From Nitrospirota bacterium (GTDB lineage: Bacteria; Nitrospirota; UBA9217): a DNA stretch of 64,000 bases. How positions within the stretch are numbered: the first letter of the stretch is position 1; each line of letters begins with the position of its first letter. The stretch spans positions 352,001 through 416,000 of the forward strand of contig CAVUCU010000004.1 in NCBI GenBank assembly GCA_963740085.1, in the 5' to 3' direction. A model generated the notes under the pieces. The model searched no databases. It was not told the DNA's origin and saw only the letters and a program-made list of their open reading frames with translations. The position numbers were made by a program, and so were the translations under genes. Positions 2,937 through 61,254 of the stretch are shown here, piece after piece.

Positions 2937-4226
2937 ATGGCGAAACACAGAGGCATATACAAGCGTGGTGGCGTTTGGTGGTATCGGTATGCAGACGCAA
3001 GCGGGAAGATTGTTAAATATTCCTCTCGTTCTTCAAAGCAAGCCGATGCAGTGGAGCTACGAGCAAAAGCGACGCTATCCATAAGGGAAGGGAAAAAACC
3101 CGATGCGCCAAAGAAGATTAGGAACTATTCGTTCAATGACCTTGCCGATAAGTATGTCGCATGGATAGAAGATCGGCAAGCATCGGCAGAGATGAAGAGC
3201 TATATCATAGCCCGCTTGAAAGAACGGGAAATCCAGGTATCAGGCGACAATGGCGATATGCAGTCGGTCAAAATTGGCACCTTACCCTTGCGAAGATTCA
3301 ATACATATCTGATTGAACAACTACAGACAGACCTAAAACGTAAGGAACTGAGAGCGCCGAGGAAGAACAGTAAGAAGGTGAATGAACTAACCACTATCAA
3401 CGGCCTGAAGGATTCAAGCTGCAACAGGATATTGAGCACAATAAAGCACATGTTCTCAAAGGCCGTTGAATGGGATATGATAGAGGAAACCACGTTGAAA
3501 AAAATGCGCAAGGTCAAACTTGCCAAAGAGGTGGGCCGGTTGAGGTATCTATCAGCGAAAGAGGCACAAACCCTTGTAAGTGTATGCGAACCTCATTTAC
3601 AGCCGATTGTCATTACCGCTCTGCACACTGGCATGAGGAAAGGGGAAATACTCAACCTCAAATGGGACAACGTAGACATGCAGCATGGTTTTATCTTACT
3701 AGATAAGACTAAGAACGGAGAACGGCGCGAGATACCGATAAATAACACTCTGAGAGAAACGCTAAATAGACTTCCTCGCAATTTCACAGGAGAGAAGGAA
3801 AACCGGCAGCTTGTCCCGTATGTGTTCCATGACCCGAAGACGTACAAACCCTATGGAGGTGTGAAGCACAGTTTTAATTCAGCCGTGAAGCGTGCAGTGA
3901 TAGTTGACTTTCACTTTTACGATCTGAGACACACGTTTGCGAGTCTTGCCATGATGTCCAGTCAGATAGACATAACCACGCTCTCGAAAATCTTAGGTCA
4001 TAAGAGTCTTAAGATGACGATGAAGTACGCCCACCTTGCACCGGCACACTTACAGAAGGCAGTTTTTGTAATGGATGAAGTGTACCGCGTGTCAACTGAC
4101 ACAAAACTGGCACAGTCAAATGAAAAAGGGTTAGTCAATGATGACCAACCCCTTGAAAACTTGGTGGAGCTGAGGGGGATCGAACCCCTGACCCCAAGAC
4201 TGCCAGCCTTGTGCTCTCCCAGCTGA
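2937..4226 (+). CDS. Phage-type tyrosine recombinase/integrase
   Basis: TGMRKGEI, KTKNG, YDLRHTF and LGHKSLKMTMKYAH catalytic motifs; N-terminal arm-binding-like region; abuts the tRNA 3' end. Confidence 0.92.
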   Translation: MAKHRGIYKRGGVWWYRYADASGKIVKYSSRSSKQADAVELRAKATLSIREGKKPDAPKKIRNYSFNDLADKYVAWIEDRQASAEMKSYIIARLKEREIQVSGDNGDMQSVKIGTLPLRRFNTYLIEQLQTDLKRKELRAPRKNSKKVNELTTINGLKDSSCNRILSTIKHMFSKAVEWDMIEETTLKKMRKVKLAKEVGRLRYLSAKEAQTLVSVCEPHLQPIVITALHTGMRKGEILNLKWDNVDMQHGFILLDKTKNGERREIPINNTLRETLNRLPRNFTGEKENRQLVPYVFHDPKTYKPYGGVKHSFNSAVKRAVIVDFHFYDLRHTFASLAMMSSQIDITTLSKILGHKSLKMTMKYAHLAPAHLQKAVFVMDEVYRVSTDTKLAQSNEKGLVNDDQPLENLVELRGIEPLTPRLPALCSPS

Positions 4227-4237
4227 GCTACAGCCCC
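4162..4237 (-). tRNA. tRNA-Ala(GGC)
   Basis: Reverse complement GGGGCTGTAGCTCAGCTGGGAGAGCACAAGGCTGGCAGTCTTGGGGTCAGGGGTTCGATCCCCCTCAGCTCCACCA; 76 nt; anticodon GGC; CCA encoded. Confidence 0.97.
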
Positions 4238-15673: not shown

Positions 15674-15919
15674 ATGAACATGGACAAGAATATGCGTGAT
15701 GAGATCGCGCGAGTGGCGTACGGATTGTTTGAAAAGCGCGGGTACACCCCCGGGAATGATTTCTCGGATTGGATTGAAGCGGAAAAAATCGTGAAGAAGA
15801 CATATTCTAAAGGAATGGCCAGCGACGTAAAACCCGTCAAGCCGGCTCAGCCTGTGAAGGCAACAGCATCGGCAAAATCAAAGTCGCGAGGGCTATCCCC
15901 GAGACCTTTGACGAGATAA
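15674..15919 (+). CDS. DUF2934-like small protein
   Basis: EIARVAYGLFEKRG...DWIEAE motif; strong GGAGG RBS. Confidence 0.8.
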   Translation: MNMDKNMRDEIARVAYGLFEKRGYTPGNDFSDWIEAEKIVKKTYSKGMASDVKPVKPAQPVKATASAKSKSRGLSPRPLTR

Positions 15920-34758: not shown

Positions 34759-36367
34759 TTATCGAGGGGATTGATCGTGCAGAAAGCAGAAGGGGTCCTT
34801 GTCCTCAAAGATATTGAGTCCATGGCTGTTTGTACTGGCGAGGCATCCGCCGCAGACGGGGCGAATGGCGCATGTCCGGCACGCCGCGGTCCCCGTGCGA
34901 TAGCGTTTCGCCAATTCCGAATCATAGATCTCCGAGATGCTCTGCTCGTGGACATCGCCGATGGGCGAGGGAAATTTTCGGCAGGCATGAACTTCGCCAT
35001 CCGCGAGGAGCGTCACGAAATTGAATGCTGCGCCGCATCCGTAGCCGGTACAACCGCCGAAGAGTGCGACTATCATGTTCGTGGCGGATGATGTTGATGA
35101 GGTTGTCCTTGATCCCCATGACGGGGTTGGTTTTAGCAGCCTCGAGATATGATTGGAGAAAAGAACGGTAGTGCCGGGCTTCCGGTAAGAGAAGATTAGC
35201 ACCTTCGCCGACCATGGAGAGCCGGTTGAAATGGAAGGTATCCGTCTTCCCGCGGAGCACCTCGGCGAGCGGCAGTACCTGGTCGATGTTCCCGCTCGTC
35301 AGGGTGAGCATGACCATGGATGATACACCGAGCTCTCTGAGGACATCGAGGAAGGCCATGATCCGGTCAAAATGACCAGTGCCGCGGATACTGTCGTTAT
35401 GCTTCCGCAGACCCTCCAGGCTCACCTGGAAAAAAGCGGGCATTTGGACGGCGATCAATTCCTCGATCTGCTCCCGCGAAGCGGGATTGCCGAGGATCGC
35501 CGTGGTGAAGCCGCGCTCTGCGGCAGCGCGGTAGATCTCCGGGAACGCCGGGTGAAGGAGGGGATTGCCGCCCGTAAAGGAGACCGCGCCGGTGACGTTC
35601 TTATTCCTGCAGAACATGCGCAGATCATCCAGCACGCTCACTGCCTGGTCGAACGTCACGGGAGGCCGGTCGCTGCGGTCATAGCAATGCTTGCAGTGAA
35701 GATCGCAGGCCTGTGTGATGTGCCACTGAAGGGTGAAAGACGGCGATGAAAAAAACTGATCGGGGATCCCATTGCCGCGGTGAAAGACCTCGGGGTCCCG
35801 CCTGATAAGCGACGGCGGTGTGAGTACGAGACCGCGCGCCCATGCGCGGACGAGCGCACGATCAATAGCACCGACGGGCAGTTTCCCCTGCGTCGCGACG
35901 GTCTCCGGAGCTACGCGCTCAACGACCATTTTGAGGACAAGGAGGTCTTCGTCCGTCGCCGGCCGCGCAATTACGCGGCCGGTAAGGTGGTTGAAATAAA
36001 CGAGTAGGCGCTCCCTCGTTTGAACGGGAGGGTTGGAACCGCGCTGGTCATGACCAAGGAAAACGGCCAGGTTCTTCCACGAAACCTCGATGATCTGCAG
36101 CGTGGGGTTGATGCAGGATCGAGCGACCTCAGCAGGGATTGATCCCGCGTTTTTTTTGACGGAGAAGGTTGTTTCCTCTAAAAGGGCGAGGTCGGACAAA
36201 AATATCGGTATCGAGCGGTCATGCTGATGGGACAGCATTTTCGACAATGACTGTGCAGCGATCGCGCCGGCCCATTGCGTGGAGAAGCGGGCCCATGCTT
36301 TTTCGCCCAGGACATTTCGACATGCTCGATACCGGGTGTCAACGTTTTTGTCTGGAAAAGGGTCCAT
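34759..36367 (-). CDS. sbtM: SbtM-type thio(seleno)oxazole RiPP radical SAM/SPASM maturase, +1 frameshift near 35065
   Basis: FTLQWHITQACDLHCKHC; SFTGGNP; SPASM FGGCTGYGCGAAFNF..HACRK..CRTCAIRPVCGGC..DPFC in the next frame; long N-terminal precursor-recognition-like region. Confidence 0.85.
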
Positions 36368-36488: not shown

Positions 36489-36521
36489 TGTTTCCCGGAA
36501 CATTTGATAGTGCAAACTGCA

Positions 36522-36758
36522 CTATTTGCTGCCGCTTCAGCCGCCTGTCGGGGTAGGGTCAGAAGCCGGTTCAGCTTTTGTTCCGCTTCAGCTGCCGTGC
36601 GTTGAGGTCTGCTCAGTGGTAACGCCTGTACCACCTGTTGAACCAGCTCAACTGCTCTCTGCGGCGCCTGTCGTCGCACCGAGAGTGAGTCCGGCGCCGG
36701 CAACCAATCCGGCAATTCCGAAGCCTGCCAGTAACTTTTTAAGCTCTTGAATATCCAT
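36522..36758 (-). CDS. sbtA: SbtA-type RiPP precursor with three predicted selenocysteines (absent from the ORF track)
   Basis: AGGAGGTG RBS; translation MDIQELKKLLAGFGIAGLVAGAGLTLGATTGAAESSUAGSTGGTGVTTEQTSTHGSUSGTKAEPASDPTPTGGUSGSK-TAG; UGA codons at 36650, 36590 and 36539. Confidence 0.85.
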
Positions 36759-37001
36759 GTTTCACCTCCTTTTCGCCACGTGTCTGCGTAAATGACGCGT
36801 TATCGGATGGGGTAAATCGATCATTGTTATTCTTGCCGGCTTACTGTATATCCCAAGCATGAGTAGTTTGAAAAGGGATGATCGGCATATATAGATAAAG
36901 TCTATTGGTTCCTGGTATCATTGTCAAGAACTGATTCGAGCAGATGAGGTCAGGGTGAAAGGGCCGTTCCGGGGACATGCGGGGTTGGGTATGGCTTCCC
37001 G

Positions 37002-47497: not shown

Positions 47498-47650
47498 TCA
47501 GAACTTTGCAAGTTTAACTGAAAACGCCTGAAATATTCCATGGTTAGAGGGATTATTTTCAGCGGGAAAGTGATGCTTTAGACGGCTTTTTTCATGGCGT
47601 TTGATGATCAATCGTCAAGGACCATGAGGCCCGGGACCCCATTCATTTTC

Positions 47651-48385
47651 ATGCAAAATAAAACGCAAAAAATAGCGCTGGTCATCGGCGGAAGCCGGGG
47701 GATAGGGCGTGCCATAGCGATCAAACTGGCAAAGTCCGGGTTCACCCTCTGGTTGACATATAAAGGTAATCATGAGGCAGCGAAAAAAACGAAGGCAGAG
47801 ATAGAATCAGCGGGAAGCGTCTGCGAACTTATCCCGTTCGATGTCTCGAGTTTTGAAGAGACCGAATCAGCCCTAGGTGAGCGCCTCGAAAACCGGTCGC
47901 CTGATGTTCTCGTGTTCAACTCGGGGATCTCCCGGGACAATCTCCTGATGTGGATGACCAAGGACGAGTGGGGCTCGGTCCTCGCCACAAATCTGAACGG
48001 GTTCTTCAATGTGACCCGTGCGGTGGTCTTCGCGATGCTGAAGGCGAAACGCGGCCGTATCGTCGTTGTTTCGTCCGTATCGGGCCAGATCGGCCAGGCA
48101 GGACAGGTAAACTATTCAGCGTCAAAGGCCGGCTTGATCGGTGCGGCAAAGGCGCTCGCGCGCGAGGTCGGGAGAAAGAACATAGTGGTGAATGTAGTGG
48201 CGCCCGGATTCATTGAAACGGAAATGACCGAAAAGATCCCGAAGGAACAGATCCTGCCTTTGATCCCGTTGAATCGCCTGGGCAGCATCGACGATGTGGC
48301 TTCGGTCGTAAATTTTCTCTGCACGGAAGAGCATATGTATATTCACGGCCAGGTGATCGGCATCAACGGCGGACTCGCGATGTAG
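47651..48385 (+). CDS. fabG: 3-oxoacyl-ACP reductase (cluster-associated FabG)
   Basis: GGSRGIG, NYSASKAG and VAPGFIETEM motifs. Confidence 0.9.
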   Translation: MQNKTQKIALVIGGSRGIGRAIAIKLAKSGFTLWLTYKGNHEAAKKTKAEIESAGSVCELIPFDVSSFEETESALGERLENRSPDVLVFNSGISRDNLLMWMTKDEWGSVLATNLNGFFNVTRAVVFAMLKAKRGRIVVVSSVSGQIGQAGQVNYSASKAGLIGAAKALAREVGRKNIVVNVVAPGFIETEMTEKIPKEQILPLIPLNRLGSIDDVASVVNFLCTEEHMYIHGQVIGINGGLAM

Positions 48386-48640
48386 GGTTCCATCTTGATC
48401 TTTGATGGACTCGTACTAAGTCAAGATTTGCCACAAAATGCGCAGAAAACACAAAGGTAAGACCGTAAGACCCAAAGCATGTCTCTGAGCATTTGTGACT
48501 TCTGTGGTTAAGAGATACTCTTTTACGAATTTGTTATTTTTTATTGATGTGAACCTCAGGTCAGTCACTCGCTTCGCCCGTAACGGACCCGAGCAGCTGC
48601 GCAGTAATAACGTATTTATTTCTCGAAGTGATTGACGATA

Positions 48641-50137
48641 ATGAAAAAATATGACGATATTGTGGTCGGAAGCGGTATCAGCGGGTTGACCATGACCCTT
48701 CTGCTCGCGATGAGCGGCCATCGCGTGTTATTGCTCGAAAAGAGCCCGCATATCGGCGGCTCACTTGCGCGATTTTCCAAGAGAGGGATCCCGTTCGACA
48801 CAGGGTTCCATTTCACGGGCGGGCTTCACGAGGGCGGCATACTCTCGGATATCCTGCGGTTCCTCGGGATCCGCGATTCCATCGAGCCGATCTATTACAA
48901 CGATACCTTCAAAAACCAGTTCGTTTTCGAAGCAGCCGGCCGGACGTTCGAACACCCCAGCGGGATCGAGAACATCAAGAGGCAATTCAAAGGCTACTTT
49001 CCGGGCGAGGCGAACGCCATAGACCGGTATTTTGAAAAGATACTCTCTGTCTGTCAACGAAGCCCGTCTCTCAACATCCATGAAAACAATATCACGTTCC
49101 CCAACCTGGACGAGGATTATATCTCGCTTGACGCGGTCCTGAAGGACCTGACCCCGAATGGGCTTCTGCGCGGACTGCTGTCCGCGTTCGCCATGTGCTA
49201 CGGTGTGCGGCCGGATGAGATGTCCTTTGCCAATCACAGCAGGATGATGCTCAGCTTTTATGAATCCTTTGCCTGTGTAAAGGACGGCGGAGATGCATTT
49301 GTCAATGCCTTTCAGAAAAGGTTCAAGGATTTTGACGTGGAGGTCCGCTGCGGGACGTACATCGCGGAACTTGCAGACCTCTCCGACAGCAAGGTGGGAC
49401 GATTTATCCTGAACACCGGAGAGGAGATTACTTCGGATACGTGCGTATTCACGATCCACCCGAAAGAGATATTGAATATCCTGCCCGCAAAGCACTTCAG
49501 CAGGGCCTTTGCGGATCGCATCGGGAGATTCGAATCGTCGGTGGGTTTCTTTTCTGTTTTCGCAACGATCAAGCCGGGGACCCGTGACCCGTATCCGGAC
49601 GCCGCAGTAACATCGCTCTTTCCGATCGAGGATGTGAACCGGCTGCTTGATCCTGCTTACCAAGGTGGTCCCGCCGTGGTCGTCATCAAGTCCACGGGAC
49701 TTGACGGCGCGGGGAAATCGGTTTGCATCCTTGAACCCTCACACTCGGAACAGGTAATGGCCTGGAGCGAGTCCCGAAGGGGGAAAAGGCCCGGGGAATA
49801 TCTTGATTATAAAAAGCATCGCATTGAAGCGATCATGGACCATGTATGCGCCGTCTATCCCGCATACCGGGAGAGTCTTGATATCGTCGATGCGGCATCC
49901 ATGTTGACATTCAAAGAATACCTGAACAGTCCTGACGGCAGTGCCTACGGCATCAAGCAGAAGATGGGACAGTTCAATCTTATCGGGAAACTCCCGCTGC
50001 ACAACCTGTATGCGGCGGGACAAAGCGCTCTCCTGCCGGGGATCACCGGCGCCATGATGTCATCGCTCATCGTGGGCCGCGCGGTGGTGGGCAAAGAGCA
50101 GTACGGCAGGCTGCTGAACCGGGCATTATGTCATTAA
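48641..50137 (+). CDS. Phytoene desaturase/retinol saturase-like FAD oxidoreductase
   Basis: VVGSGISG, FDTGFHFTG, GSAYG and NLYAAGQS..PGITGA motifs. Confidence 0.85.
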   Translation: MKKYDDIVVGSGISGLTMTLLLAMSGHRVLLLEKSPHIGGSLARFSKRGIPFDTGFHFTGGLHEGGILSDILRFLGIRDSIEPIYYNDTFKNQFVFEAAGRTFEHPSGIENIKRQFKGYFPGEANAIDRYFEKILSVCQRSPSLNIHENNITFPNLDEDYISLDAVLKDLTPNGLLRGLLSAFAMCYGVRPDEMSFANHSRMMLSFYESFACVKDGGDAFVNAFQKRFKDFDVEVRCGTYIAELADLSDSKVGRFILNTGEEITSDTCVFTIHPKEILNILPAKHFSRAFADRIGRFESSVGFFSVFATIKPGTRDPYPDAAVTSLFPIEDVNRLLDPAYQGGPAVVVIKSTGLDGAGKSVCILEPSHSEQVMAWSESRRGKRPGEYLDYKKHRIEAIMDHVCAVYPAYRESLDIVDAASMLTFKEYLNSPDGSAYGIKQKMGQFNLIGKLPLHNLYAAGQSALLPGITGAMMSSLIVGRAVVGKEQYGRLLNRALCH

Positions 50138-51354
50138 AGCGTGTCGTGATAACAGGGATCGGCGTGGTTTCGCCTTTCGGCAACGGCCTGCCCGCCCTGA
50201 TGAAGGGTATCGAGGAAGGTCGGAGCGCCGTGCGGCGCATGGAGGGATGGGACCAGTACATCGGCCTGCATAGTCTCGTCGGGGCAACGGTAGATATCCA
50301 GGACGAAAAACGAATTCCGAGACAGAAGCGGCGTTCCATGGGACGCATGAGCATCTTCGCGGCACAGGCAGCTGATGAGGCCATCGCTGATGCCGGTATC
50401 TCCCTCGCCGGAGAAGACCTGTGGCGGATCGGCTGCGTCATCGGTTCGACCATGGGGAGCGCCAAAAGCATCAACGATGCCTTTGAGACCATGCTGCCCA
50501 ACAAGGACCTGAGCCGGCTGAACTCGACCATGTTCTTTCAGTGCATGTCGCATACGGCAGCGGTGAACGTCGCCCAGTACCTGGGACTGAACGGCACGAT
50601 CATGGCGCCGGCCGCTGCATGCGCGTCGGCACTTCATGCCATCGGCACGGGTTACGATCTGATCAGGCTCGGGAGGCAGGACGTCCTGCTCTGCGGCGGG
50701 GCCGAGGAACTCCACCCGACGGTAACCGGGTCTTTCGACATTCTTTTCGCGACATCGACGAAGTACAACGAGACACCGCAGAAAACGCCGCGGCCGTTTG
50801 ACAGGGACCGGGACGGTCTGGTCTGCGGGGAGGGGAGCGGCCTCGTGGTCATCGAGGACTACGAGCGGGCGATCAAGAGGAACGCAAAGATCTACGCCGA
50901 GATCACGGGTTACAGCACGACGGCGAACGGTCTTCACGTAAGCCAGTCGAACAGGGAATCCATGATCGTCTGCATGCAGCAGGCGCTCCGTGATGCCCGT
51001 GTTCAGTCGGAGGAGATCGATTATGTCAACGCCCATGCCACGGCCACTCTTCAGGGGGACCAGGAGGAAGCAGAGGCCATCGCGAAAGTCTTCGGGTCGG
51101 TGGTTCCTGTAAGCAGCCTGAAGGGATATATCGGTCATACACTCGGCGCTTCAGGCGCCATCGAGCTGGCCGCATCGCTCTCGATGATGGAGCGGGGTGT
51201 GGTCTACCCCACGCTGAACCTGGACACCGTCAGTTCGGACTGCGAAGGGATCCATCACGTGACGAAGCCGCTCAAGAAGCAGCTCAAGACCATCCTGAAG
51301 AACGGGTTCGCCTTCGGCGGCATCAATGCGGCGCTGGTGTGCAGGAAAATATAA
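50128..51354 (+). CDS. Beta-ketoacyl-ACP synthase
   Basis: AACAS, NAHATAT, KGYIGHTLGA and FAFGG motifs. Confidence 0.93.
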   Translation: MSLKRVVITGIGVVSPFGNGLPALMKGIEEGRSAVRRMEGWDQYIGLHSLVGATVDIQDEKRIPRQKRRSMGRMSIFAAQAADEAIADAGISLAGEDLWRIGCVIGSTMGSAKSINDAFETMLPNKDLSRLNSTMFFQCMSHTAAVNVAQYLGLNGTIMAPAAACASALHAIGTGYDLIRLGRQDVLLCGGAEELHPTVTGSFDILFATSTKYNETPQKTPRPFDRDRDGLVCGEGSGLVVIEDYERAIKRNAKIYAEITGYSTTANGLHVSQSNRESMIVCMQQALRDARVQSEEIDYVNAHATATLQGDQEEAEAIAKVFGSVVPVSSLKGYIGHTLGASGAIELAASLSMMERGVVYPTLNLDTVSSDCEGIHHVTKPLKKQLKTILKNGFAFGGINAALVCRKI

Positions 51355-51403
51355 AGTTATCATAGGACCGATACGACCTATCAGACAGATACCGGAGGCG
51401 TGC

Positions 51404-51670
51404 ATGATCGAGCAGGAAATCATCAACAAGATCAACAAGGTGTTCGAGGAATCCTTTGAGATCGAGAAGGAGCGTCTTGTCCCGCAGGCGCATATCTTCA
51501 CGGACCTGGGACTCGACAGCCTTGATATCGTCGACCTGGTGGTCGCGCTCCAGAACACCTTTGGCGTCAAGATCAGGAACGAGGAAAAGGTCAGGGACAT
51601 CCGGACGCTTCAGGATATCTACCAGTTCATTTCCTCGCTGAAGAACGAGGAACACAAGAAGAGCGCCTAG
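51404..51670 (+). CDS. Acyl carrier protein
   Basis: DLGLDSLDIVDL motif; GGAGG RBS. Confidence 0.93.
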   Translation: MIEQEIINKINKVFEESFEIEKERLVPQAHIFTDLGLDSLDIVDLVVALQNTFGVKIRNEEKVRDIRTLQDIYQFISSLKNEEHKKSA

Positions 51671-51672
51671 CG

Positions 51673-52425
51673 ATGCTGTCCCGGGTGAAACTGCTTCTTC
51701 TGAACCTGTATTTTTATACGTTCTTTTTCCTGTTTTCCGCGATCTCGATCCCGGTGCTGACGATCATTGTCGCGATTTCGAGGATATTCCTGTCTCACCG
51801 CCGGACCATGAAACGGTTTCGCCGCGCCATCAGCTGGTATGGGATAATCATCACGTCCATCCCGTATCCATTTATCAGGCTCCGTTACGAGGACCGGGGA
51901 AAGGACAGCGCGGAAGGGGCATACATCTTTGTTTGCAACCATCGTGCTGCATCAGACGCGTTCCTGATGTGCGTGCTTCCGCATGAGGTGGTCCAGATCG
52001 TGAACATCTGGCCCTTCAGGATACCCGTGCTCGGACTGTATGCCAGATATTCCGGCTACTTGAACATCAGGATGATGTCGCAGGAACAATTCCTGGAACA
52101 AGCGACAAAATTGCTTAACGATGGCGTCTCGATCATCTTCTTTCCCGAGGGCACGCGTTCGGCCAGCAGGACCATGGGGAGTTTTCACGGCGCTGCATTT
52201 CGTCTGGCGCTCGCTTCAAAGGCCGCCGTTGTCCCGCTTTGCATCACGGGGAACGAGAACATCCCGCCCAAAGGATCGCCGCTTCTTCGACCGGGTACGA
52301 TACGAGTGCGCAGATTGCCGGCAATCACCTGGGATGAGTACAAGGACCTGAATGCCTTCGCCTTCAAGAACAGGGTGTGGCATATTATCGATAAAGAGCT
52401 GTCCGTCATGGAGAAAGATTCATAA
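51673..52425 (+). CDS. Lysophospholipid acyltransferase (PlsC family)
   Basis: NHRAASD and FPEGTRS motifs. Confidence 0.9.
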   Translation: MLSRVKLLLLNLYFYTFFFLFSAISIPVLTIIVAISRIFLSHRRTMKRFRRAISWYGIIITSIPYPFIRLRYEDRGKDSAEGAYIFVCNHRAASDAFLMCVLPHEVVQIVNIWPFRIPVLGLYARYSGYLNIRMMSQEQFLEQATKLLNDGVSIIFFPEGTRSASRTMGSFHGAAFRLALASKAAVVPLCITGNENIPPKGSPLLRPGTIRVRRLPAITWDEYKDLNAFAFKNRVWHIIDKELSVMEKDS

Positions 52426-52575
52426 CTACTCAGATTGGCCGCAAAAGAACTCAAAGAACTCAAAGAAAAAACCTGAAACCATGTATGTCAGTTTTAAATC
52501 TCTCTGCGATCCTTGCGTGCTTTTCTCAGTGGCCGGTTCATTTTTCAGACCATTCGCGGCTAACAGATTTTGACC
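52424..52575 (+). repeat. Dispersed ~150-bp repeat, copy C
   Basis: High similarity to the reverse complement of copy A. Confidence 0.85.
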
Positions 52576-52621
52576 CGAGGCGTTAGGGAATGTATTTATA
52601 ATTTGGCGCTTAGCAAACAGT

Positions 52622-53926
52622 ATGATCGAATTCGACCGAAATAATAAACTGGAATTCTCCGATCCGGGGAAGATCAGGGAGGTACAGGAAGGGCTGCTGA
52701 AAAAGCATGTCCTTTATTGCGCAGACCATTCTCCCTATTACCGGGAGCTGTTCCGCCAGCAGGGTGTCGATGCACGAGCCATTACCCTCGACAGGCTGCG
52801 CGATCTTCCTCTTACGGACAAAACCGCGCTCAGCCTTGCAAATGACGATTTTCTTGCCGTTCCGCCGTCGCAGATAGTGGATATCGTGCTGTCCTCGGGG
52901 ACCACAGGCAAGCCGACGAAGATGATGTATACCGAAAACGATCTCAGGCGGCTTGCTTACAACGAAGAAATTTCCTTCAAAAGCTGCGGATTGACGCGGG
53001 ACGATATTGTGCTGCTGACCTGCACCATGGACCGCTGCTTCATCGCCGGCCTGGCTTACTTTTCGGGTGTCCGGAGCCTGGGCGCGGCGGCCATCAGGAA
53101 CGGCCTGAGCAGCTTTGACAGCCATCTCGAGATCATTCTGCGGTTGAAACCGACGGCCGTCGTGGGTGTGCCTACGTTCCTGCTCAAGCTCGGACAGTTC
53201 ATAAAATCGCAGGACATCGATCCGCGCGGGGTCGGCATCGGGAAACTGATCTGTATCGGCGAACCGATCAGGGACCGTTCTCTCGCATTCCTTCGGATCG
53301 GCGAAAGCCTGGAATCGGTCTGGGGAGCGAAGATCTATTCTACCTACGCCTCCTCGGAGACCATCACCTCGTTCTGCGAGTGCACTGCCCAGCAAGGCGG
53401 ACACCTGCATCCAGACCTGGCTGTGGCGGAGATCGTGAGCGACCAGGGCGAAGTGCTCCCTGCCGGCGAACCGGGCGAGGTGGTGATAACTCCCCTGGCG
53501 ATCGAAGGCATGCCCGTGCTCAGGTTTAGAACCGGTGATATCGGTTTTATCATTGATGAACCCTGCGCCTGCGGACGGCATTCGCATCGCCTGGGCCCCA
53601 TCCTCGGGAGAAAGAAGCAGATGATCAAGTTCCGCGGAACGACGCTGTATCCCAATTCTCTGTACACGGTCCTCGACTCGTTCCCCGGGATCAGCGAATA
53701 CTTCGTGACCGCAACGAGCGACTACGACCTTTCCGATGTGGTCAGGGTCACCATTGCCGTGAAAGATCCATCCTGCTCCGCCGACGTGATCATGGATAAG
53801 CTTCAGGCGCACCTGCGGGTGAGGCCTGAAGTGATCATCGCGAGCGAGGAGAGCGTGAAACGTCAGGTCTATGCCGGGAATTCCCGGAAGTTAATTCGTT
53901 TTGTGGATAAGAGAAAGAAAATATGA
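52622..53926 (+). CDS. Phenylacetate-CoA ligase-like adenylating enzyme
   Basis: SSGTTGKP, STYASSE, RFRTGD and GRKKQMIK motifs. Confidence 0.88.
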   Translation: MIEFDRNNKLEFSDPGKIREVQEGLLKKHVLYCADHSPYYRELFRQQGVDARAITLDRLRDLPLTDKTALSLANDDFLAVPPSQIVDIVLSSGTTGKPTKMMYTENDLRRLAYNEEISFKSCGLTRDDIVLLTCTMDRCFIAGLAYFSGVRSLGAAAIRNGLSSFDSHLEIILRLKPTAVVGVPTFLLKLGQFIKSQDIDPRGVGIGKLICIGEPIRDRSLAFLRIGESLESVWGAKIYSTYASSETITSFCECTAQQGGHLHPDLAVAEIVSDQGEVLPAGEPGEVVITPLAIEGMPVLRFRTGDIGFIIDEPCACGRHSHRLGPILGRKKQMIKFRGTTLYPNSLYTVLDSFPGISEYFVTATSDYDLSDVVRVTIAVKDPSCSADVIMDKLQAHLRVRPEVIIASEESVKRQVYAGNSRKLIRFVDKRKKI

Positions 53927-55410
53927 AAACATGTCAAAGCCGTATTTACGGCGCGGAATTCTCCCAGCAGGAGATCGCCGAGGCCGTCCGTGGGGGCCGG
54001 CTGCTTTCCATGGAGATGGAGTTCAACAAGAGCTGCAATTTCCGGTGCCTCTACTGCTATGCGTCCGACCATACCGTTCATCGGAACGAACTGAGCAAAC
54101 ATGAGTTCCTTGACCTCATCAACCAGGCCAGGGAACTGGGCGCGAGGAAGATCATCGTCCTCGGCGGCGAACCCATGCTCTATCCGTCCATCATAGAGAT
54201 GATCCAATACATCAGGGACCTCGGAATGGATGTCGAGCTCTTCACGAACGGGACGAACGTCACCCGTGAGATGGCTCAGACGCTGTATGGTCTCGGAGTG
54301 CGCGTGGTCCTCAAGATGAACACGTTCGAGGAAAAGATCCAGGACATGCTTTCGGGAAGGAAGGGCGCGCACGTCCAGATCCATGAAGCGTTCAATAACC
54401 TGAAACTGGCCGGCTATCCGTCTGCGGACCATTTCATGGGGATCAGCACGGTTATTTGTCAGCAGAACATCGATGAGCTCCCGAAGATGTGGGAGTGGCT
54501 GCGGGACCAGAACATCGCTCCCTATTTCGAGATGATCACCCCGCAGGGTGGCGCCAAAGAACACAATATGCTTGAAGTCGATTCCCGGCAGGTCGAAGAG
54601 CTTTTTCACCGGATCTCCAGGATCGACCGGAAGAAATACGGGCACACCTGGGACCCAAAGCCTCCGCTCGTCGGCGGCGAGTGTCTTCGTCACCAGTTCT
54701 CCTGCGCGGTCAACTCCGAAGGCTTTGTGCAGCCGTGCGTAGGGGTCACGATCCCGATCGGCAATGTGCGCAAACAACGGCTCAAGGACATTCTGCGTGA
54801 GAGTGAGGTGGTCCAGGACCTCAAGAACTATACCGAGACCATCAAGGGTCCCTGCAGCGAATGCGAACGCTTGAGCGAATGTTACGGCTGCCGGGGAGCG
54901 GCATACCAGATGACCGGCGACTACCTTGCTTCCGACCCCCTGTGCTGGAAGAACCTGGACAGGCGGGACGATATCATGTTCCTGCCGGTGGATGCCGGCC
55001 AGCTCGTTCCGCACAAACAGCCCATGCTTCTCATCGACCGGCTCCTCGAGGTCCAGGAGCGGGCATCGCTTTCCGAGATGATCGTGCGTGCGGACATGCT
55101 CTTCGTGGGAAAGGACGGGAAGCTCGATGATGTCTCGTATCCCGAGATCATATCCCAGGCGATCGCCGCACAGGAGGGCTTTCGAAAGCTCGGGAGCCGT
55201 AATCCTCAGCAGGAAGGTTTTCTGCTCGGCATCAAGAACATCGAGATCGTCGGCAGCGCGCGCGTCGGAGACACCCTTCGCGTATCAGTGTTCAAGGTCG
55301 CTAAGTACGGGGACTTCGGAATTATCCGGGGAGAGGTCAGGAATGGCGACACCCTGATCGCCAGCGGAGAGGTAAAGGTCTGGCAGGGCAATGGCAAGGC
55401 GGCGGCATGA
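53923..55410 (+). CDS. Radical SAM/SPASM protein fused to a C-terminal hotdog (dehydratase-like) domain
   Basis: CNFRCLYC; SPASM CLRH..C..QPC..CSEC...CYGCRG..DPLC; then LVPHKQPMLLIDRL...EIISQAIAA...GFLLGI. Confidence 0.85.
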   Translation: MKTCQSRIYGAEFSQQEIAEAVRGGRLLSMEMEFNKSCNFRCLYCYASDHTVHRNELSKHEFLDLINQARELGARKIIVLGGEPMLYPSIIEMIQYIRDLGMDVELFTNGTNVTREMAQTLYGLGVRVVLKMNTFEEKIQDMLSGRKGAHVQIHEAFNNLKLAGYPSADHFMGISTVICQQNIDELPKMWEWLRDQNIAPYFEMITPQGGAKEHNMLEVDSRQVEELFHRISRIDRKKYGHTWDPKPPLVGGECLRHQFSCAVNSEGFVQPCVGVTIPIGNVRKQRLKDILRESEVVQDLKNYTETIKGPCSECERLSECYGCRGAAYQMTGDYLASDPLCWKNLDRRDDIMFLPVDAGQLVPHKQPMLLIDRLLEVQERASLSEMIVRADMLFVGKDGKLDDVSYPEIISQAIAAQEGFRKLGSRNPQQEGFLLGIKNIEIVGSARVGDTLRVSVFKVAKYGDFGIIRGEVRNGDTLIASGEVKVWQGNGKAAA

Positions 55411-56219
55411 TGATGAACAACACTATAGCGAAGAGCGCCGTTCTCTTCCTGGTCCTGTGCATACTGGCGCACGCCGGACAGGCTTTCGCGAAGGACGGGA
55501 AAAAGGACGGCGCGCCGGAACCAACCGACCTTTCCGTATTGCTGAATCGCATCGGGAAAAAGGTCTCGAACTTCAAGACCCTCAAAACGGACTTCACGGA
55601 GGAAAAAGAAATGGCCATGTTCAAGGAGAAGCTCGTGCTCAAGGGCAGGATCTATCTCCAGAAGCCGAACATGGTCGCCTGGCATGTGGATAAACCTCTC
55701 CGGTATTCCGTCCTGATCACTGATAAATTCATCCGTCAGTGGGACGAGGACACGAACCAGGTCCAGGAACTTTCCTTAACGAAAAACCCGATGTTTCAGA
55801 ACGTCATCAGGCAGCTGACCGTATGGTTCTCAGGAGAGTACGGCTCGCTCCTTGAGACCAATGACGTGCGGCTGGTGAAACGCACCCCCCTGACGCTCGA
55901 GTTCTCGCCCCGCGCGAATAATGACTCCCGGAAAGTGATCAAGAACATCACCATTACGTTCCGGGAGGACGAGACCTATCTCCAGCAGATCCGCATGGTG
56001 GAACTGAGCGGTGATGTCACCACGATCACGTTCACGAACACTCTTTTGAATGCCCCTCTTGACAGCGGGAGTTTTAAGGTTCCCCCCGTCAGAGAAAAGA
56101 GTTCTCTCCTTTCCCCCGATCGCGACGGTGCGCGGGTATCGCGCGCATCGCTCCGGGACGCGGTGGACCTCCCTCGTGAGCCGGCTACTTTTTTCAACGG
56201 GGTAACAGGGCATGTTTGA
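55407..56219 (+). CDS. LolA-like carrier protein
   Basis: Signal peptide; DFTEEK..GRIYLQKPNMVAWHV and GDVTTITF motifs. Confidence 0.8.
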   Translation: MMMNNTIAKSAVLFLVLCILAHAGQAFAKDGKKDGAPEPTDLSVLLNRIGKKVSNFKTLKTDFTEEKEMAMFKEKLVLKGRIYLQKPNMVAWHVDKPLRYSVLITDKFIRQWDEDTNQVQELSLTKNPMFQNVIRQLTVWFSGEYGSLLETNDVRLVKRTPLTLEFSPRANNDSRKVIKNITITFREDETYLQQIRMVELSGDVTTITFTNTLLNAPLDSGSFKVPPVREKSSLLSPDRDGARVSRASLRDAVDLPREPATFFNGVTGHV

Positions 56220-58602
56220 GAAGTATTTCTCGCTCCTGTACCAGTTCGTATTCCGGCACAAACGAGGCGTGCTCGGGGCCGTCCTCCTGATTACCATTGC
56301 GGCCTGCGTCGGGCTCTTCTTTATTCCCTATGAAGGCAATATCGATATCATGCTCCCGCCGGACCCGGAGATCACCCGCAGCATGGATTTTCTCCGTGAC
56401 TCGAGCCTTTCCGACAAGGTCATTATCTCCCTCGCCCTGACCGACCGGTCAAAAGGGAAGCATGACCTCTTCCGGGCCGTCGATGAACTGGCGGCCTCGC
56501 TTCAACCGCCGCTCTTCACGAGCGTGATCACGGGAATCTCCATGGCCGACGCAATGGAGGAATTCTCGATGCTGCAGTACGCGCCGCAGATTCTCGGCGA
56601 GAAAGACCTCGTCACCATTGAACGCCAGCTGACGCCGAAATCCGTTTCCGCGAGGATGCAGGCGATCTACCGTCAGTCGCTCAGACCCGAAAGCGTCTTC
56701 ATGACCTCCCTGTCGCGCACGGACCCCCTGAGCATCCACACGCTGCTGCTCGGAAAGCTGCGGGCTCTCCCGGCTTCGATGGGTTTTGATGTCGCCATCG
56801 AGGAGGGCCATTTCGTCAGCCGCGACGGTCGCCATGCCATGCTCATCATCCAGACGCCGGTCAAGATGATGGACAGCCAGAAGAGCAAAGAGCTGGTGCG
56901 GGCGTTGGATGAACATATCAAAAAACTGCCTGCGTACGTGTCCGCGGACGTCATCGGCGGTCATCTCCACACGGTCAGCAACGAACGGGTGATCCAGCGG
57001 GACATCGCGGTCGCTTCGGTCATCGCCACGATCGCCTTTTTCCTTCTCTTTTTTATCGTGTTCCGCGATGCCCGGGCGATGTTCGTGTTCATCTTCCCGC
57101 TGATCGCGGTCATCTGGGGCGTCGTTCTGCTGGCCGGTATCGAACACACGCTTTCGTACCTCGTCATCGGGTTCGGTACGGCCATCGTGGGGATCTCCGA
57201 TTACGGACTGATCGTCTATATCGCCATGAAACGGGGCACCGGCGCTTCGCAGCCCGTGCAGCTCGCCAAGCTCGTGTTCATCGATGCGATCACGACCATT
57301 TTCAGTTTCGTCGTGCTGTTTTTCTCCCAGATCCGCGGATACCATCAGCTGGCCTTGTTCTCGGTCCTCTGCCTGCTCATCTGCCTTCTGTTCTCGCTGT
57401 TCGTGCTGCCGCTGACCCTTTCCTGGAAGCGGTACTCCATGGTGGAAGATCCGACGGTCGGCGACCGGCTGAAGAACATCCAATGGCCCGCAAAGCTCAC
57501 GGTCGGGATATGGGCGATCATCACGGTCGTCTTCTTCGTTCTTTCCCTGTCGATCAAACTTGACAGCGACGTGCGAAAACTGGACGGGAGCGGACCGGAG
57601 GTGCTTCAGGCGGAACGATCGTTCCATAGTATATGGGGCGGAAAGTCCAATCAAGCGATCCTGGTTGTCACGGGGGCAAGCCTCGAGGAAGCAATGGAAA
57701 AGAACGACCGGGTCTTCCACAAGGCGATGAAGACGGTCAACAGTGAGGATTTTACGAGCCTGGCGCTGTTCTGGCCATCTGAGAAGACCCGGATCGAGAA
57801 TCAGGAGCGCTGGGACCGTTTTTGGAAGCAGGGGCGGGAACGCAGGCTGAAGGAGTTGATCAGGCAAACGTCTGCCGAGCACGGCTTCTCGGAGCGTGCG
57901 TTCATGCCTTTTTTCGACGGGCTCTATGACCATCAGCGCGATGCCGGGCGCGCCGGCGGCATGATCACCCGGCTGCAGGAACGGTTCGTGGTGAAGAAGA
58001 AAGAAGAATACCGGATCATGTCGTTCTTCCCGGACGAACCGAAGACCTACGAATCGCTGTCCGCGGTGGCGAAGCAATTCCCGGGCACGTTCATCGTATC
58101 CGGCAAGGCGTTGTCCTCGTCGATCTCCACGTATACGGCGAGGGAAGCGATGATCCTCGCCCCGCTCGCGGTCCTCTTTAACGTCGTGCTGGCCTGGCTT
58201 TTTTTCAGGAACTGGAAAGAGACCCTGATCTCGCTCGTCCCGCTCCTGACCGGCGCTGTCTGGCTGCTCGGCTTCATGGCGATATTCAAAATGCCGCTGA
58301 ACGTCATCAGCATAGTTGCCGGCATCATCGCGAGCGGCGTCATCGTGGACTACGGCATCGGGATCACCTACGAATACAGCCACAATCTGCACTTCGGCAC
58401 GATGATGGCGATGACCCTGTCCGCGGCGTCGAACGTGATAGGAGCGGGGGCACTGCTGTTCGCGCTGCATCCGGCCTTTTTTTCAACCGGGGTGGCCATG
58501 GTTATCTCCATGGTCACCGGATACCTCTCGTCCGTGATCGTGATACCGTCCCTCTGCAAACTGCTGGGGACAACGGGCCGCCAGGAGGTCGGGCAGCAAT
58601 GA
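56212..58602 (+). CDS. MMPL/RND-family exporter
   Basis: Two repeats of a periplasmic loop plus TM bundle; GISDYG and VIVDYG motifs. Confidence 0.85.
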   Translation: MFEKYFSLLYQFVFRHKRGVLGAVLLITIAACVGLFFIPYEGNIDIMLPPDPEITRSMDFLRDSSLSDKVIISLALTDRSKGKHDLFRAVDELAASLQPPLFTSVITGISMADAMEEFSMLQYAPQILGEKDLVTIERQLTPKSVSARMQAIYRQSLRPESVFMTSLSRTDPLSIHTLLLGKLRALPASMGFDVAIEEGHFVSRDGRHAMLIIQTPVKMMDSQKSKELVRALDEHIKKLPAYVSADVIGGHLHTVSNERVIQRDIAVASVIATIAFFLLFFIVFRDARAMFVFIFPLIAVIWGVVLLAGIEHTLSYLVIGFGTAIVGISDYGLIVYIAMKRGTGASQPVQLAKLVFIDAITTIFSFVVLFFSQIRGYHQLALFSVLCLLICLLFSLFVLPLTLSWKRYSMVEDPTVGDRLKNIQWPAKLTVGIWAIITVVFFVLSLSIKLDSDVRKLDGSGPEVLQAERSFHSIWGGKSNQAILVVTGASLEEAMEKNDRVFHKAMKTVNSEDFTSLALFWPSEKTRIENQERWDRFWKQGRERRLKELIRQTSAEHGFSERAFMPFFDGLYDHQRDAGRAGGMITRLQERFVVKKKEEYRIMSFFPDEPKTYESLSAVAKQFPGTFIVSGKALSSSISTYTAREAMILAPLAVLFNVVLAWLFFRNWKETLISLVPLLTGAVWLLGFMAIFKMPLNVISIVAGIIASGVIVDYGIGITYEYSHNLHFGTMMAMTLSAASNVIGAGALLFALHPAFFSTGVAMVISMVTGYLSSVIVIPSLCKLLGTTGRQEVGQQ

Positions 58603-59279
58603 TCCGAAGAACGGTCATTCTTGTGTTCCTGTTGCTCGTGTTCGCTGCCGGATGCAGTACGGTGCCGTTCCAGAAGACCGCCCTGGTAAGTCTTGAGACC
58701 GTGGACGCGAGAAACATCCTGGAGCAGTTCAAATCGCGTATGCCGGACAGTTTTCAATTGCTGAATACCGTTGTTTTTGAGTATAATGGGCGCAAGTTTT
58801 CCGCTATCGGTTCGGTGTATATCAGCGAGGCTGACCGTGTTTTCAGGGTGGCCGGCATGAATCCCATGGGGGTGAAGCTGTTCGAGCTCTCAGGTGACCG
58901 AAGCGGCGTGAAGACCCATTACGCGATCGCGGATTTCTCCAAGCGCGGCGATATCGCCACTGCAGTTGGCAACGACATCAGACTCATCTACTTTGATCTT
59001 GTCCCCGGACCCGAAGCGAGTATATGGAAGAGAAAATATAAACTGATCTTTCGACAATCTTCCGGTCCCGGTCATCTGGAGTATGTTTTCGGCGGGGCGA
59101 ACGGAGACCTGATCGAGAAGAACTATTATGATGAGGGCGGGATCGTCTGGAGAATATCGTATTATGAGTACCGGGACCAGGACGGATACCGCTGGCCGCA
59201 GGGCATTGTCTTCATTCACTACCAATATCGGTACCGGTTGACCATAAGACAGAAGGAGTTGCTTGTTGAGCGCAATTAA
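58599..59279 (+). CDS. Lipoprotein (DUF3261-like)
   Basis: Lipobox AAGC; GVKLFEL and GNDIRLIY motifs. Confidence 0.65.
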   Translation: MIRRTVILVFLLLVFAAGCSTVPFQKTALVSLETVDARNILEQFKSRMPDSFQLLNTVVFEYNGRKFSAIGSVYISEADRVFRVAGMNPMGVKLFELSGDRSGVKTHYAIADFSKRGDIATAVGNDIRLIYFDLVPGPEASIWKRKYKLIFRQSSGPGHLEYVFGGANGDLIEKNYYDEGGIVWRISYYEYRDQDGYRWPQGIVFIHYQYRYRLTIRQKELLVERN

Positions 59280-59655
59280 ATCAGAGATCGAAGGCTGCAT
59301 GAGCGGTCTGGAAAAGGTAGGCAAAAGGGTGACGTCCCGCTTTGCCTTCCCGCCCGGGTTCATTGGTTTTCAAGGACACTTTCCCCAGAAAAAGGTCCTG
59401 CCGGGAGTGTGCCAGATCCAGTGCGCCCTTTCCCTCCTCGAACAGGGGAGTGGAAAGTCCGTGGTCCTGAAAGAGATTGTGCTGGCCAAGTATTTTTCAC
59501 CCGTGTTCCCGGACGACGAAGTGACCTGCGTCATAAGCGAGATGGGGGACACCTGCGGCGAGGTCGTTGTGAAAGCGGTCATCTCACGGAAGACCGACAA
59601 AATCTCGGAAATGAAATTGCGCGTCTCCTATGGCGACGGGGAAAACAAGAGGTAG
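59263..59655 (+). CDS. Hotdog-fold dehydratase (FabZ/ApeI-like)
   Basis: FQGHFP...LPGVCQI and KYFSPVFP motifs. Confidence 0.85.
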   Translation: MLSAIKSEIEGCMSGLEKVGKRVTSRFAFPPGFIGFQGHFPQKKVLPGVCQIQCALSLLEQGSGKSVVLKEIVLAKYFSPVFPDDEVTCVISEMGDTCGEVVVKAVISRKTDKISEMKLRVSYGDGENKR

Positions 59656-59656
59656 T

Positions 59657-60142
59657 ATGAGGTCAAGGAACAGGGAAACCTATTTTGAGCGGGTCCCGGG
59701 AGTACCCGAGCCGATCGTCGTCCAGGTCAAGAGGCGGGTCCGGTTCAATGAGGCCGACCCCATGGCGATCGCATGGCATGGGCGGTATCCTCTCTATTTC
59801 GAAGAAGCATCCGAGGAGCTTGGCAGAAAGTGCGGTTTGTCGTATGCGGACTATTTCGAAGCCGGTCTGCGCGCGCCTGTTGTCGAATTTCATATCGATT
59901 ACTATAAACCTCTGTTCCTCGACGAGGAATTTACGATCAAGGCATCGCTGATCTGGCATGAAGGGTCGCGGCTCAATATCGAGTATCTCCTGATCAAGCA
60001 GGACCGGAGCACCGCCTCGAGCGCTTACATGGTGCATTTGTTCACCGACCATCAGACCGGAGATCCCTTTATGGTCTCTCCGGAATTACTTGAACGCTGC
60101 CGAAGGAGATGGAAGGCAGGGGAGTTCCATCGCAGACCATGA
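59657..60142 (+). CDS. Acyl-CoA/ACP thioesterase (4HBT family)
   Basis: VRFNEADPMAIAWHGRYPLYFE motif. Confidence 0.88.
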   Translation: MRSRNRETYFERVPGVPEPIVVQVKRRVRFNEADPMAIAWHGRYPLYFEEASEELGRKCGLSYADYFEAGLRAPVVEFHIDYYKPLFLDEEFTIKASLIWHEGSRLNIEYLLIKQDRSTASSAYMVHLFTDHQTGDPFMVSPELLERCRRRWKAGEFHRRP

Positions 60143-61254
60143 AACCTGTCGTCGTATCGGCGGATATGCTGACGCCTTATGGCAAGGGAATTGACGCATG
60201 CTGGCAGGGTTTGTCTGCCGGGCAAAGCGCCATATCCCGGGTCAGCCGTTTCAAGACAGCGGCGTTCCACTCGGACTATGCGGGTATCATCGGCGGCCTG
60301 AGGTATCACGAACAAACCTCCCTGGTCGTGCAGATGTTGGAGTCCCTGTTCACGGGAACGGTTTTCCCCGAAGACGCGAAACTTCTGCTGGCAACGACCA
60401 AAGGGGAGATCGACCTGCTCGAGCAGAGCATGCTCGAGAACAAGGGCGATGTTAGGGATGCCGTCGTGAGCAGGCTCATCGGCAAGGTGGCCGGCATGAC
60501 CTCAGCGAGGGGCGGGGGGCTGGTGCTTTCGGCAGCCTGCACCTCATCGGCGGCGGCAGCAGCGCAGGCGGCTGCCATGATCAGGAACGGTCACGCGGAC
60601 TGCGTGCTCGTGGTTGCCTGCGACAGCGTGACCGAATTCATCTTTTCCGGATTTTCCTCGCTCATGGCGCTGGACAAACAGCCCGCACGGCCCTTTGACA
60701 GGAACAGGGCAGGCCTGAACGTGGGCGAGGCCGCTGCCTATGCGCTTATTATGAGCGAAGAACGCGCCCTTCGCGAGAACCGTCCCGTGCTCGGGACGAT
60801 AGCAGGCTGGGGCCTGAGCGATGACGCGAACCACATGACCGGCCCGTCGCGGGAGAGCGAGGGTCTTGTCCTGGCCATCAAGAAAGCGCTTGAATCCGCC
60901 GGCATTGCGCCCGGTGAGGTGGGACTTATCGCAGCGCACGGCACCGGGACCGTGTACAACGACCAGATGGAGATGCGCGCTTTCCGCGCCGTGTTCGCGG
61001 ATGCTCCTCGTCCGGTCTATTCCATCAAGGGCGGAATCGGACATACGATGGGCGCGGCGGGGCTCGTGGAGATGCTCATTGCGCAACGCGCGCTCCGGGA
61101 AGGGCGCATCCCGCCAACAGTAAACCTGAAAGAGGTTGATGACGATGCGCGAGGATGGGCGTCGGACCGGCAGCAGCCGGTGCGCGGACAGTCGCCGGCC
61201 CTGATGACGAATGCCGGCTTCAGCGGGATAAACACGGCACTGGTGCTGGGATGA
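60139..61254 (+). CDS. Beta-ketoacyl-ACP synthase (second copy)
   Basis: SAACTSS, AHGTGT, KGGIGHTMGA and GFSG motifs. Confidence 0.9.
   Translation: MKPVVVSADMLTPYGKGIDACWQGLSAGQSAISRVSRFKTAAFHSDYAGIIGGLRYHEQTSLVVQMLESLFTGTVFPEDAKLLLATTKGEIDLLEQSMLENKGDVRDAVVSRLIGKVAGMTSARGGGLVLSAACTSSAAAAAQAAAMIRNGHADCVLVVACDSVTEFIFSGFSSLMALDKQPARPFDRNRAGLNVGEAAAYALIMSEERALRENRPVLGTIAGWGLSDDANHMTGPSRESEGLVLAIKKALESAGIAPGEVGLIAAHGTGTVYNDQMEMRAFRAVFADAPRPVYSIKGGIGHTMGAAGLVEMLIAQRALREGRIPPTVNLKEVDDDARGWASDRQQPVRGQSPALMTNAGFSGINTALVLG

Follow-up and report, generated by a model that had tools for sequence, protein, structure and literature searches.

We find that the second of three in-frame UGA codons in an sbtA gene of a Nitrospirota bacterium has no SECIS element of its own, and we propose with moderate confidence, from models of mRNA folding, that it borrows the SECIS of the third UGA by a fold-back of the mRNA. 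The gene lies in the 64,000-nt stretch of DNA analyzed here (the window). The gene itself and the placement of a SECIS behind each UGA were already known; what is new is a predicted arrangement in which a whole lineage would share the terminal SECIS, docked by a helix within the coding sequence.

The sbtA locus

The region under study is the 3′ half of sbtA, which ends with a TAG at 36524 on the minus strand (Table 1). Its leader scored 44.4 bits against TIGR04081 in a profile search (cut-off 30.5), and three TGA codons are in frame, as the initial annotation had reported, beginning at 36650, 36590 and 36539 on the minus strand (codons 37, 57 and 74) and spaced by 20 and 17 codons. The corresponding cores, SSUA, GSUS and GGUS, fall inside the variation of the 81 precursors described below, and none is exactly GGUG or SGUG. 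With the thio(seleno)oxazole RiPP system SbtA/SbtM ("selenobacteriocin", TIGR04081/TIGR04082) the window shares the leader, the maturase and predicted Sec in small-residue cores, but it differs in having three Sec, one UGA without a SECIS and a frameshifted sbtM, and in belonging to Nitrospirota rather than to Geobacter or Desulfobacteria. A passage of the discoverer's perspective on this system places the SECIS right after the Sec codon, gives probably at least two Sec and has SbtM make the thio(seleno)oxazole (PMC9204691), and an entry in a 2026 review lists the SbtA system with two Sec (PMC13188914). By analogy with the chemistry of another family member, SbtM would form a selenooxazole on each core. 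No selA, selB, selC, selD or tRNA-Sec was seen within the 64-kb window, and we therefore infer the use of Sec in this organism from the family. Rfam gave no match in the region and no SECIS match in the window.

Table 1. Features of the sbtA-sbtM locus, in window coordinates
Feature	Position	Strand	Basis
sigma-70-like promoter candidate, TTGACA-17-TAGACT	36899..36927	-	consensus match alone; 2 found vs 0.8 expected
AGGAGG, Shine-Dalgarno-like, ahead of the sbtA ATG	36765..36770	-	read directly
sbtA, 78-residue thio(seleno)oxazole RiPP precursor with three predicted Sec (U37, U57, U74)	36522..36758	-	translation with TGA as U; TIGR04081
SbtA leader, residues 1-26	36681..36758	-	stretch matched by TIGR04081
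UGA1, core SSU, codon 37	36648..36650	-	in-frame TGA
SECIS 1, family hairpin in a bulged form, encoding GTGVT, likely own SECIS of UGA1	36615..36635	-	-8.5 kcal/mol, loop AGGC at +20; 15.9 bits, held-out model
UGA2, core GSU, codon 57, without its own SECIS	36588..36590	-	in-frame TGA
5′ strand of the predicted helix, UGA2 +13 to +26, overlapping hairpin 2	36562..36575	-	pair probabilities 0.93-0.99, outer and inner 4-bp stems
UGA3, core GGU, codon 74	36537..36539	-	in-frame TGA
3′ strand of the predicted helix, core 3 codons U-S-G-S, 2 nt before SECIS 3	36528..36538	-	fold
SECIS 3, perfect 8-bp stem, GUU loop, across the TAG; would serve UGA3 directly and, in the model, UGA2	36507..36525	-	35.8 bits, held-out model
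sbtM radical SAM maturase, N-terminal part	35069..36367	-	TIGR04082, 499 bits (cut-off 350), profile 2-399; frame continues to a stop at 34922
sbtM SPASM part, other frame	34759..35067	-	TIGR04082 profile 422-516; two-frame tblastn match

The adjacent sbtM begins 154 nt 3′ of sbtA and does not encode an intact maturase, as a frameshift near 35068 separates the SPASM part, whose frame has an ATG at 35076. Such a two-frame split was seen in none of the 80 related loci. A protein 98% identical to the window SbtM (P0003) also reaches its end in that shifted frame; the two differences visible beyond the break would, judging from the protein, be silent in the SPASM frame. P0021 shows no break at the window's frameshift position. 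The split and the shared shifted-frame end could mean that the window locus is decaying and that its RNA features are relics. However, sbtA, its leader, the three UGAs and both SECIS are intact, and the arrangement described below is common to 14 other loci with single-frame sbtM matches and is thus independent of the window copy, which leaves decay highly improbable as an explanation.

Elsewhere in the window, a fatty-acid-synthase-like cluster at 47594-61251 (plus strand) includes below-cut-off matches to the flexirubin models FlxB, FlxY and LolA2 and a radical SAM gene. A tyrosine recombinase-like gene at 2937-4237 lies beside tRNA-Ala(GGC), a possible island boundary.

SECIS hairpins of the family and of the window

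GTDB genomes were scanned with an SbtM alignment, and 80 of at least 576 confirmed loci were kept. A leader HMM gave 84 matches which, without one partial sequence (L040) and two exact duplicates (L060, L061), left 81 precursors including that of the window; the ends of three (L022, L039, L064) were corrected by hand. Forty of the 81 carry three Sec, 26 carry two and seven are all-Cys, and relatives carry up to five Sec. Searching proteins with the precursor read as Cys gave no match (2 candidates, none scored), so the Cys-type comparison was made with the seven all-Cys precursors in these loci.

A hairpin of the form RGYRC-N-G[G/U]N-N-GYRCY, a rule written after the folds were seen, follows 160 of 190 UGAs, 0/34 cores in all-Cys precursors and 5/12 Cys cores in mixed ones, against a background of 12%. 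RNAalifold returned this stem from the family alignment, made of the 126 rule-positive segments (126/147) outside the window's lineage, and the stem covaries strongly across these homologues, with 186 double-sided changes, a count that 0/500 shuffles reached. This covarying hairpin is the family SECIS. A covariance model (R1) was trained on the non-lineage rows, so that it was held out from the window's clade.

In six loci (L018, L027, L051, L052, L058 and L079), two UGAs at a spacing of three codons (e.g. SGUSGU) share one hairpin; relative to the first of them its loop lies at +27 to +31, making this a short-range sharing of a SECIS inside the published range. Two sbtA paralogues per sbtM locus were found in L010, L013, L019, L021, L053 and L041. 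A lipobox-like [GSAN]C follows a hydrophobic leader in 54 of the 81 precursors, suggesting exported lipopeptides; the window SbtA has no lipobox and appears to resemble a plain signal peptide.

The initial annotation had drawn a hairpin behind each UGA of the window gene and taken all three for SECIS elements. The stems do begin where it placed them, 13, 10 and 11 nt after UGA1, UGA2 and UGA3, and the third, a perfect 8-bp stem with a GUU loop, spans the TAG stop; the SECIS assignment held for UGA1, in a variant form, and for UGA3, but not for UGA2, whose hairpin the held-out model skipped. The hairpins proved barely more stable than shuffled controls. Over five windows per UGA, z-scores ran from -0.2 to -0.6 for UGA1, -0.2 to -2.2 for UGA2 and -1.6 to -2.3 for UGA3, each weak alone, and of 3000 36-mers drawn at random from the window, 26%, 56% and 26% folded as well as hairpins 1, 2 and 3, respectively; a second computation agreed. 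Shuffle z-scores of single hairpins were set aside as non-discriminating, and the homologues were used to decide instead.

Published bSECIS constraints are a loop of 3-9 nt with a G in its first two positions, a stem of 4-16 bp, a spacing of 16-37 nt and an MFE of -7.5 or lower (PMC13188914). Hairpin 1 (loop AGGC, 8 bp with a bulge, +20, -8.5) and hairpin 3 (loop GUU, 8 bp, +19, -8.6) agree with all four and conform to the bacterial SECIS of the E. coli fdhF type, with 16-37 nt to a G-containing loop. Hairpin 3 is the best match of the held-out model in 64 kb and a canonical family SECIS. Hairpin 1 is the second-best match (E 0.077 over the window), with two non-standard pairs in the family register; its bulged type also follows the first core of L001, L003 and L004, and it is likely a working SECIS variant. 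Hairpin 2 (36563-36577) has a loop of AAC at +16 without a G, or of GAACC at +15, and only -5.6 kcal/mol, outside the constraints. The held-out model gave UGA2 13.0 bits, drawn from the core codons, a result resembling that for a decoy at 15775. The central C-G pair of hairpin 2 is C.A in 4/4 orthologous spacers, and in longer context the hairpin has a probability of 0.001-0.06, because both of its arms pair with core 3 (0.93-0.99). We conclude that UGA2 has no SECIS of its own.

Hairpin 2 might still be an atypical local SECIS, which would preserve the rule of one SECIS per UGA seen in the rest of the family and in a passage of PMC3541580. It can be drawn as a 6-bp stem that is the MFE structure of a short local segment, where z falls to its lowest value; opening its top pair gives the loop that starts with G, and a comparable hairpin of 5 bp, with the loop AGC, forms at L002:73. 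We consider this very unlikely, since hairpin 2 fails the published model on energy and on either loop G or spacing, is passed over by the held-out model, is mismatched in all four orthologous spacers and rarely forms in context, and since G-loop hairpins are scarce behind the internal UGAs of the clade even with a relaxed model (see below).

A Nitrospirota clade without local hairpins

Hairpin-less UGAs number 30 in all, and 24 of them are in the window and 14 further Nitrospirota loci. The SbtM proteins of these loci form one branch (15 rows, SH-aLRT 99 in a quick tree), and the other Nitrospirota loci retain one SECIS per UGA. A rule hairpin follows 4/28 internal UGAs in the clade versus 91/96 outside it, and 15/15 terminal UGAs in the clade; the clade, the hairpin rule and the tests were all framed after the data were seen. 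The stop-spanning hairpin is present in 19/19 clade precursors (in L001 at its frameshifted end). With a relaxed model, we found no clade-specific local G-loop hairpin that could substitute: at -3 kcal/mol or better, a G-loop hairpin followed 4/28 clade internal UGAs, 31% of random windows and 89/96 internal UGAs outside. A local SECIS is absent at UGA2 and at most internal UGAs of the clade. From the hairpin-less clade UGAs it is 54-119 nt to the nearest SECIS loop, with one borderline exception, and the 70 nt separating UGA2 from its nearest family loop are beyond the published bacterial range.

The core codons of the clade comprise 43 TGA, 3 TGT and 1 TGC. The hairpin-less UGAs look like sense codons, because they are swapped with TGY at aligned sites and because the last core and the SECIS beyond them are conserved. 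We infer that Sec rather than Cys would be inserted at them. The terminal, stop-overlapping SECIS is retained in L002:5834-5869, L004:5807-5843, L014:5841-5876 and the L041 precursor (5666), where the neighbouring UGA has become GGA, TCA or TGC.

Five clade loci (L006, e.g. L006:4866-5579, and L010, L011, L013 and L021) have a Cys-type MsrA divergently upstream of sbtA and an AcsV-like gene downstream of sbtM. No conserved third gene was found near sbtA-sbtM, the largest non-SbtM neighbour cluster being a histidine kinase in 12 loci. The precursor at L001:1061-1357 has a four-core layout over three frames (two indels), reflecting assembly error or decay.

A predicted long-range helix

Folds were run from each hairpin-less UGA to the end, with +1 to +10 masked for the ribosome. 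In the window, the stretch behind UGA2 paired with the codons of core 3 (Table 1), with 12.1 expected pairs versus 7.3 in a synonymous-codon null (p 0.02). Across the clade, the predicted helix begins between +12 and +16, has its 3′ strand in the codons of the last core, mostly ends 1-6 nt before the SECIS and loops out 35-100 nt. Six or more expected pairs were found for 23/25 clade UGAs (mean 9.8), a set that includes L006:48, reassigned as being without its own SECIS, compared with 0/3 clade UGAs that have their own SECIS and 1/69 outside (mean 0.4); the helix is missing at L002:73 and L006:48. Scrambling the outsiders' own hairpins raised their mean from 0.4 to 2.7 pairs, versus 9.8 in the clade.

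Against the synonymous-codon null, p was 0.05 or lower for 14/24 clade UGAs. Pairing with the strand's own 3′ partner averaged -17.2 kcal/mol versus -14.0 with swapped partners (permutation p < 1e-4; 0.022 within subgroups), whereas outside the clade p was 0.56. Within the clade, mean complementarity has its maximum at UGA+12; outside it is flat. The outer stem is GCUG/CAGC, GGUG/CACC or GGAA/UUCC according to subgroup, so that both strands change their encoded residues in concert; these between-subgroup changes represent about three independent evolutionary events. Single-stranded spacer plus linker total 12-20 nt in 23/25 cases, compared with 11-28 nt for direct hairpins.

In L010, L013, L019 and L021, the two sbtA types differ in outer stem, with GGUG/CACC in one and GGAA/UUCC in the other. 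The 5′ helix strand of the window (36564-36576, minus) reads S-U-T-G in a shifted frame, by chance or as a hint of its origin.

Several tests were less favorable. In blind consensus folding, RNAalifold recovered the helix unaided in 1 of 4 alignments (A4), within which covariation was marginal (4 pairs, 22/500 shuffles; score, 56/500). The far helix was not returned from A3, A5 or A6 (all 25 clade segments, mixed subgroups and subgroup A, respectively), two of which had rows out of register. A graph-distance test put 21/23 cases below the null mean, nearly all of them individually unremarkable; graph distance from UGA to SECIS is too blunt a measure because compact RNAs score short anyway. In a sliding-window test the window strand ranked 0.27, and 10/23 clade cases reached 0.05. 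Hairpins or helices also persist behind TGY codons (L041, L003:36, L002:56 and L021:50), so retention is not proof of use. We regard both the existence of the far helix and selection for it as probable.

Because the cores repeat, the strand can pair with any of them, and in A6, the window's subgroup A, RNAalifold paired it with the core of its own UGA. When the mRNA is folded free of the ribosome, 11/25 cases, the window included, form the far helix, and in 16/25 the far helix is stronger than the own-core duplex. The +13 strand might accordingly be selected for pairing with its own core, in ribosome pausing or codon shielding, while SelB on the terminal SECIS reaches the upstream UGAs loosely or the UGAs mostly terminate and yield nested shorter peptides. 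Own-core pairing does prevail in about half of the ribosome-free folds, and engineered 3′-UTR SECIS function in E. coli, judging from the title of a 2005 paper by Su, Li and Gladyshev. Yet an own-core stem must melt when its UGA is decoded, about 11 nt being within the tunnel according to a passage of PMC4513850, and the outer-stem partner sits just before the terminal SECIS, being found in the UGA's own +1 to +12 in 1/19 cases with standard stems. Own-core selection therefore seems unlikely to us. Because the own-core stem cannot survive decoding, we read the two pairings as a possible switch, in which the far helix would replace the own-core stem.

The hairpin-less UGAs might also be decoded with no SECIS at all, either as Cys, through a selC* tRNA-Cys with a UCA anticodon (with SelB*), or by leaky suppression, and the complementarity might be a by-product of Ala and Pro codons facing Gly and Ser codons or might serve mRNA stability. 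A passage of PMC5389517 describes selC* genes with GCA or UCA anticodons from Nitrospirae/Thermodesulfovibrio, one of which suppressed an opal codon in E. coli; TGA/TGY swaps occur at the hairpin-less sites, and the synonymous null retains a mean of 7.3 of the 12.1 pairs in the window. However, reading without a SECIS would leave unexplained the fixed start of the helix, its end close to the SECIS, the partner specificity and the subgroup-matched outer stems, and no UCA tRNA or tRNA-Sec was found in the window or the 80 related loci, which cover little of each genome. We judge this explanation improbable.

Spacer length and peptide sequence

The initial annotation had suggested that the 17-20 codons between cores are set by the need to fit one SECIS per Sec, so that RNA structure shapes the spacers. 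Spacers with their own SECIS span 14-54 codons (median 22, n=81), compared with 5-16 codons (median 7, n=28) in all-Cys precursors, the latter figures coming from seven precursors and fewer lineages; after hairpin-less clade UGAs the spacer is 11-17 codons. A GAGST-type pentapeptide, [GSD][AT][GV]x[TAIV], follows 91/94 internal UGAs outside the clade and 0/46 Cys cores; the class was chosen on the protein alone and excludes the GTGVT variant, which L003 keeps behind TGC. Silent bases follow the opposite strand of the hairpin. An A at codon 1 goes with a T in the third position of codon 5 in 12/12 cases, a codon 5 starting with G goes with a codon 1 ending in C in 16/17, and a codon 2 starting with A goes with a codon 4 ending in T in 11/12. 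Together with the Sec versus Cys spacing, this indicates that the RNA sets five residues and a 14-codon floor, and that 17-20 codons is not a set length. The SbtA family is a clear-cut example in which peptide sequence is dictated by RNA structure, and this matters for judging which SbtA residues are functional.

Discussion

Our model would have all three sbtA UGAs read as selenocysteine. UGA1, through its own hairpin, and UGA3, through the hairpin over the stop, would follow the standard bacterial route, with SelB bound to a G[G/U] loop some 20 nt 3′ of the codon. When the ribosome stands at UGA2, bases +13 to +26, as they leave the mRNA tunnel, would pair with the last-core codons and loop out the spacer. 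This would park SECIS 3 just behind the helix, with 12 nt plus 2 nt of single strand, compared with 11-15 nt for a direct SECIS, and SelB on SECIS 3 would decode UGA2. The ribosome would next melt the helix, and the same SECIS 3 could be reused for UGA3. In the wider clade, each hairpin-less UGA would have such a strand, and one terminal SECIS would be relayed to two or three UGAs. We somewhat favor the delivery of SECIS 3 to UGA2 by the helix as a step in its own right. We also lean, a little less firmly, toward the view that this Nitrospirota lineage replaced one SECIS per UGA with a relay, in which antisense strands would re-dock the stop-overlapping SECIS to UGAs up to 120 nt apart. Recoding in E. 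coli is reported at 30-40% per codon in the abstract of PMC4513850; at 30-40% per UGA, if independent, three UGAs would give 3-6% full-length product, and nested products of shorter length should therefore appear whichever model holds.

Sec insertion in bacteria is taught to be a purely local process. For this reason gene finders based on SECIS demand a hairpin 16-37 nt after the UGA, and recombinant multi-Sec proteins are hard to make. Passages of four papers give each bacterial Sec codon its own SECIS right after it and confine shared SECIS to archaea and eukaryotes (PMC3541580, PMC4989117, PMC1802603, PMC10778597). One 3′ element is proposed to serve several UGAs in VhuD, Lokiarchaeota HdrA-VhuD, SelP and SelL (PMC4989117, PMC3541580). 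The likeness to these shared 3′-UTR SECIS is that one element would serve several UGAs, but the element here is a small hairpin of the bacterial type, and the distance would be bridged by a predicted coding-sequence helix that restores bacterial geometry. SECIS 3, as a single stem, lacks the GAA_A bulge, the AUGA quartet/kink-turn and the two-helix fold. By its title, the 2005 paper of Su, Li and Gladyshev describes a 3′-UTR bacterial SECIS working in E. coli, which likewise acts from beyond the stop codon but is engineered rather than natural. In the full-text literature, mostly non-subscription, we found neither a report of a natural bacterial SECIS that is shared or looped in nor one of constraints on SbtA spacers. 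The primary SbtA/SbtM papers, reportedly Lewis 2021 and Haft and Basu 2011, are outside that scope and may discuss SECIS placement. Passages of PMC10177961, PMC13056109 and bioRxiv 2022.07.06.499078 add nothing on these points.

If the model is true, the arrangement predicted in this one bacterial lineage would break the bacterial rule of one hairpin per codon. A natural helix would bring a distant SECIS to several UGAs, making the constraint on Sec insertion geometric rather than linear, and missed selenoproteins would be predicted among UGAs now taken to be SECIS-less. It would mirror in bacteria the SECIS sharing of archaea and eukaryotes, and it would supply a natural long-range shared bacterial SECIS with ordinary SelB geometry, so that Sec could be placed without a SECIS beside each codon.
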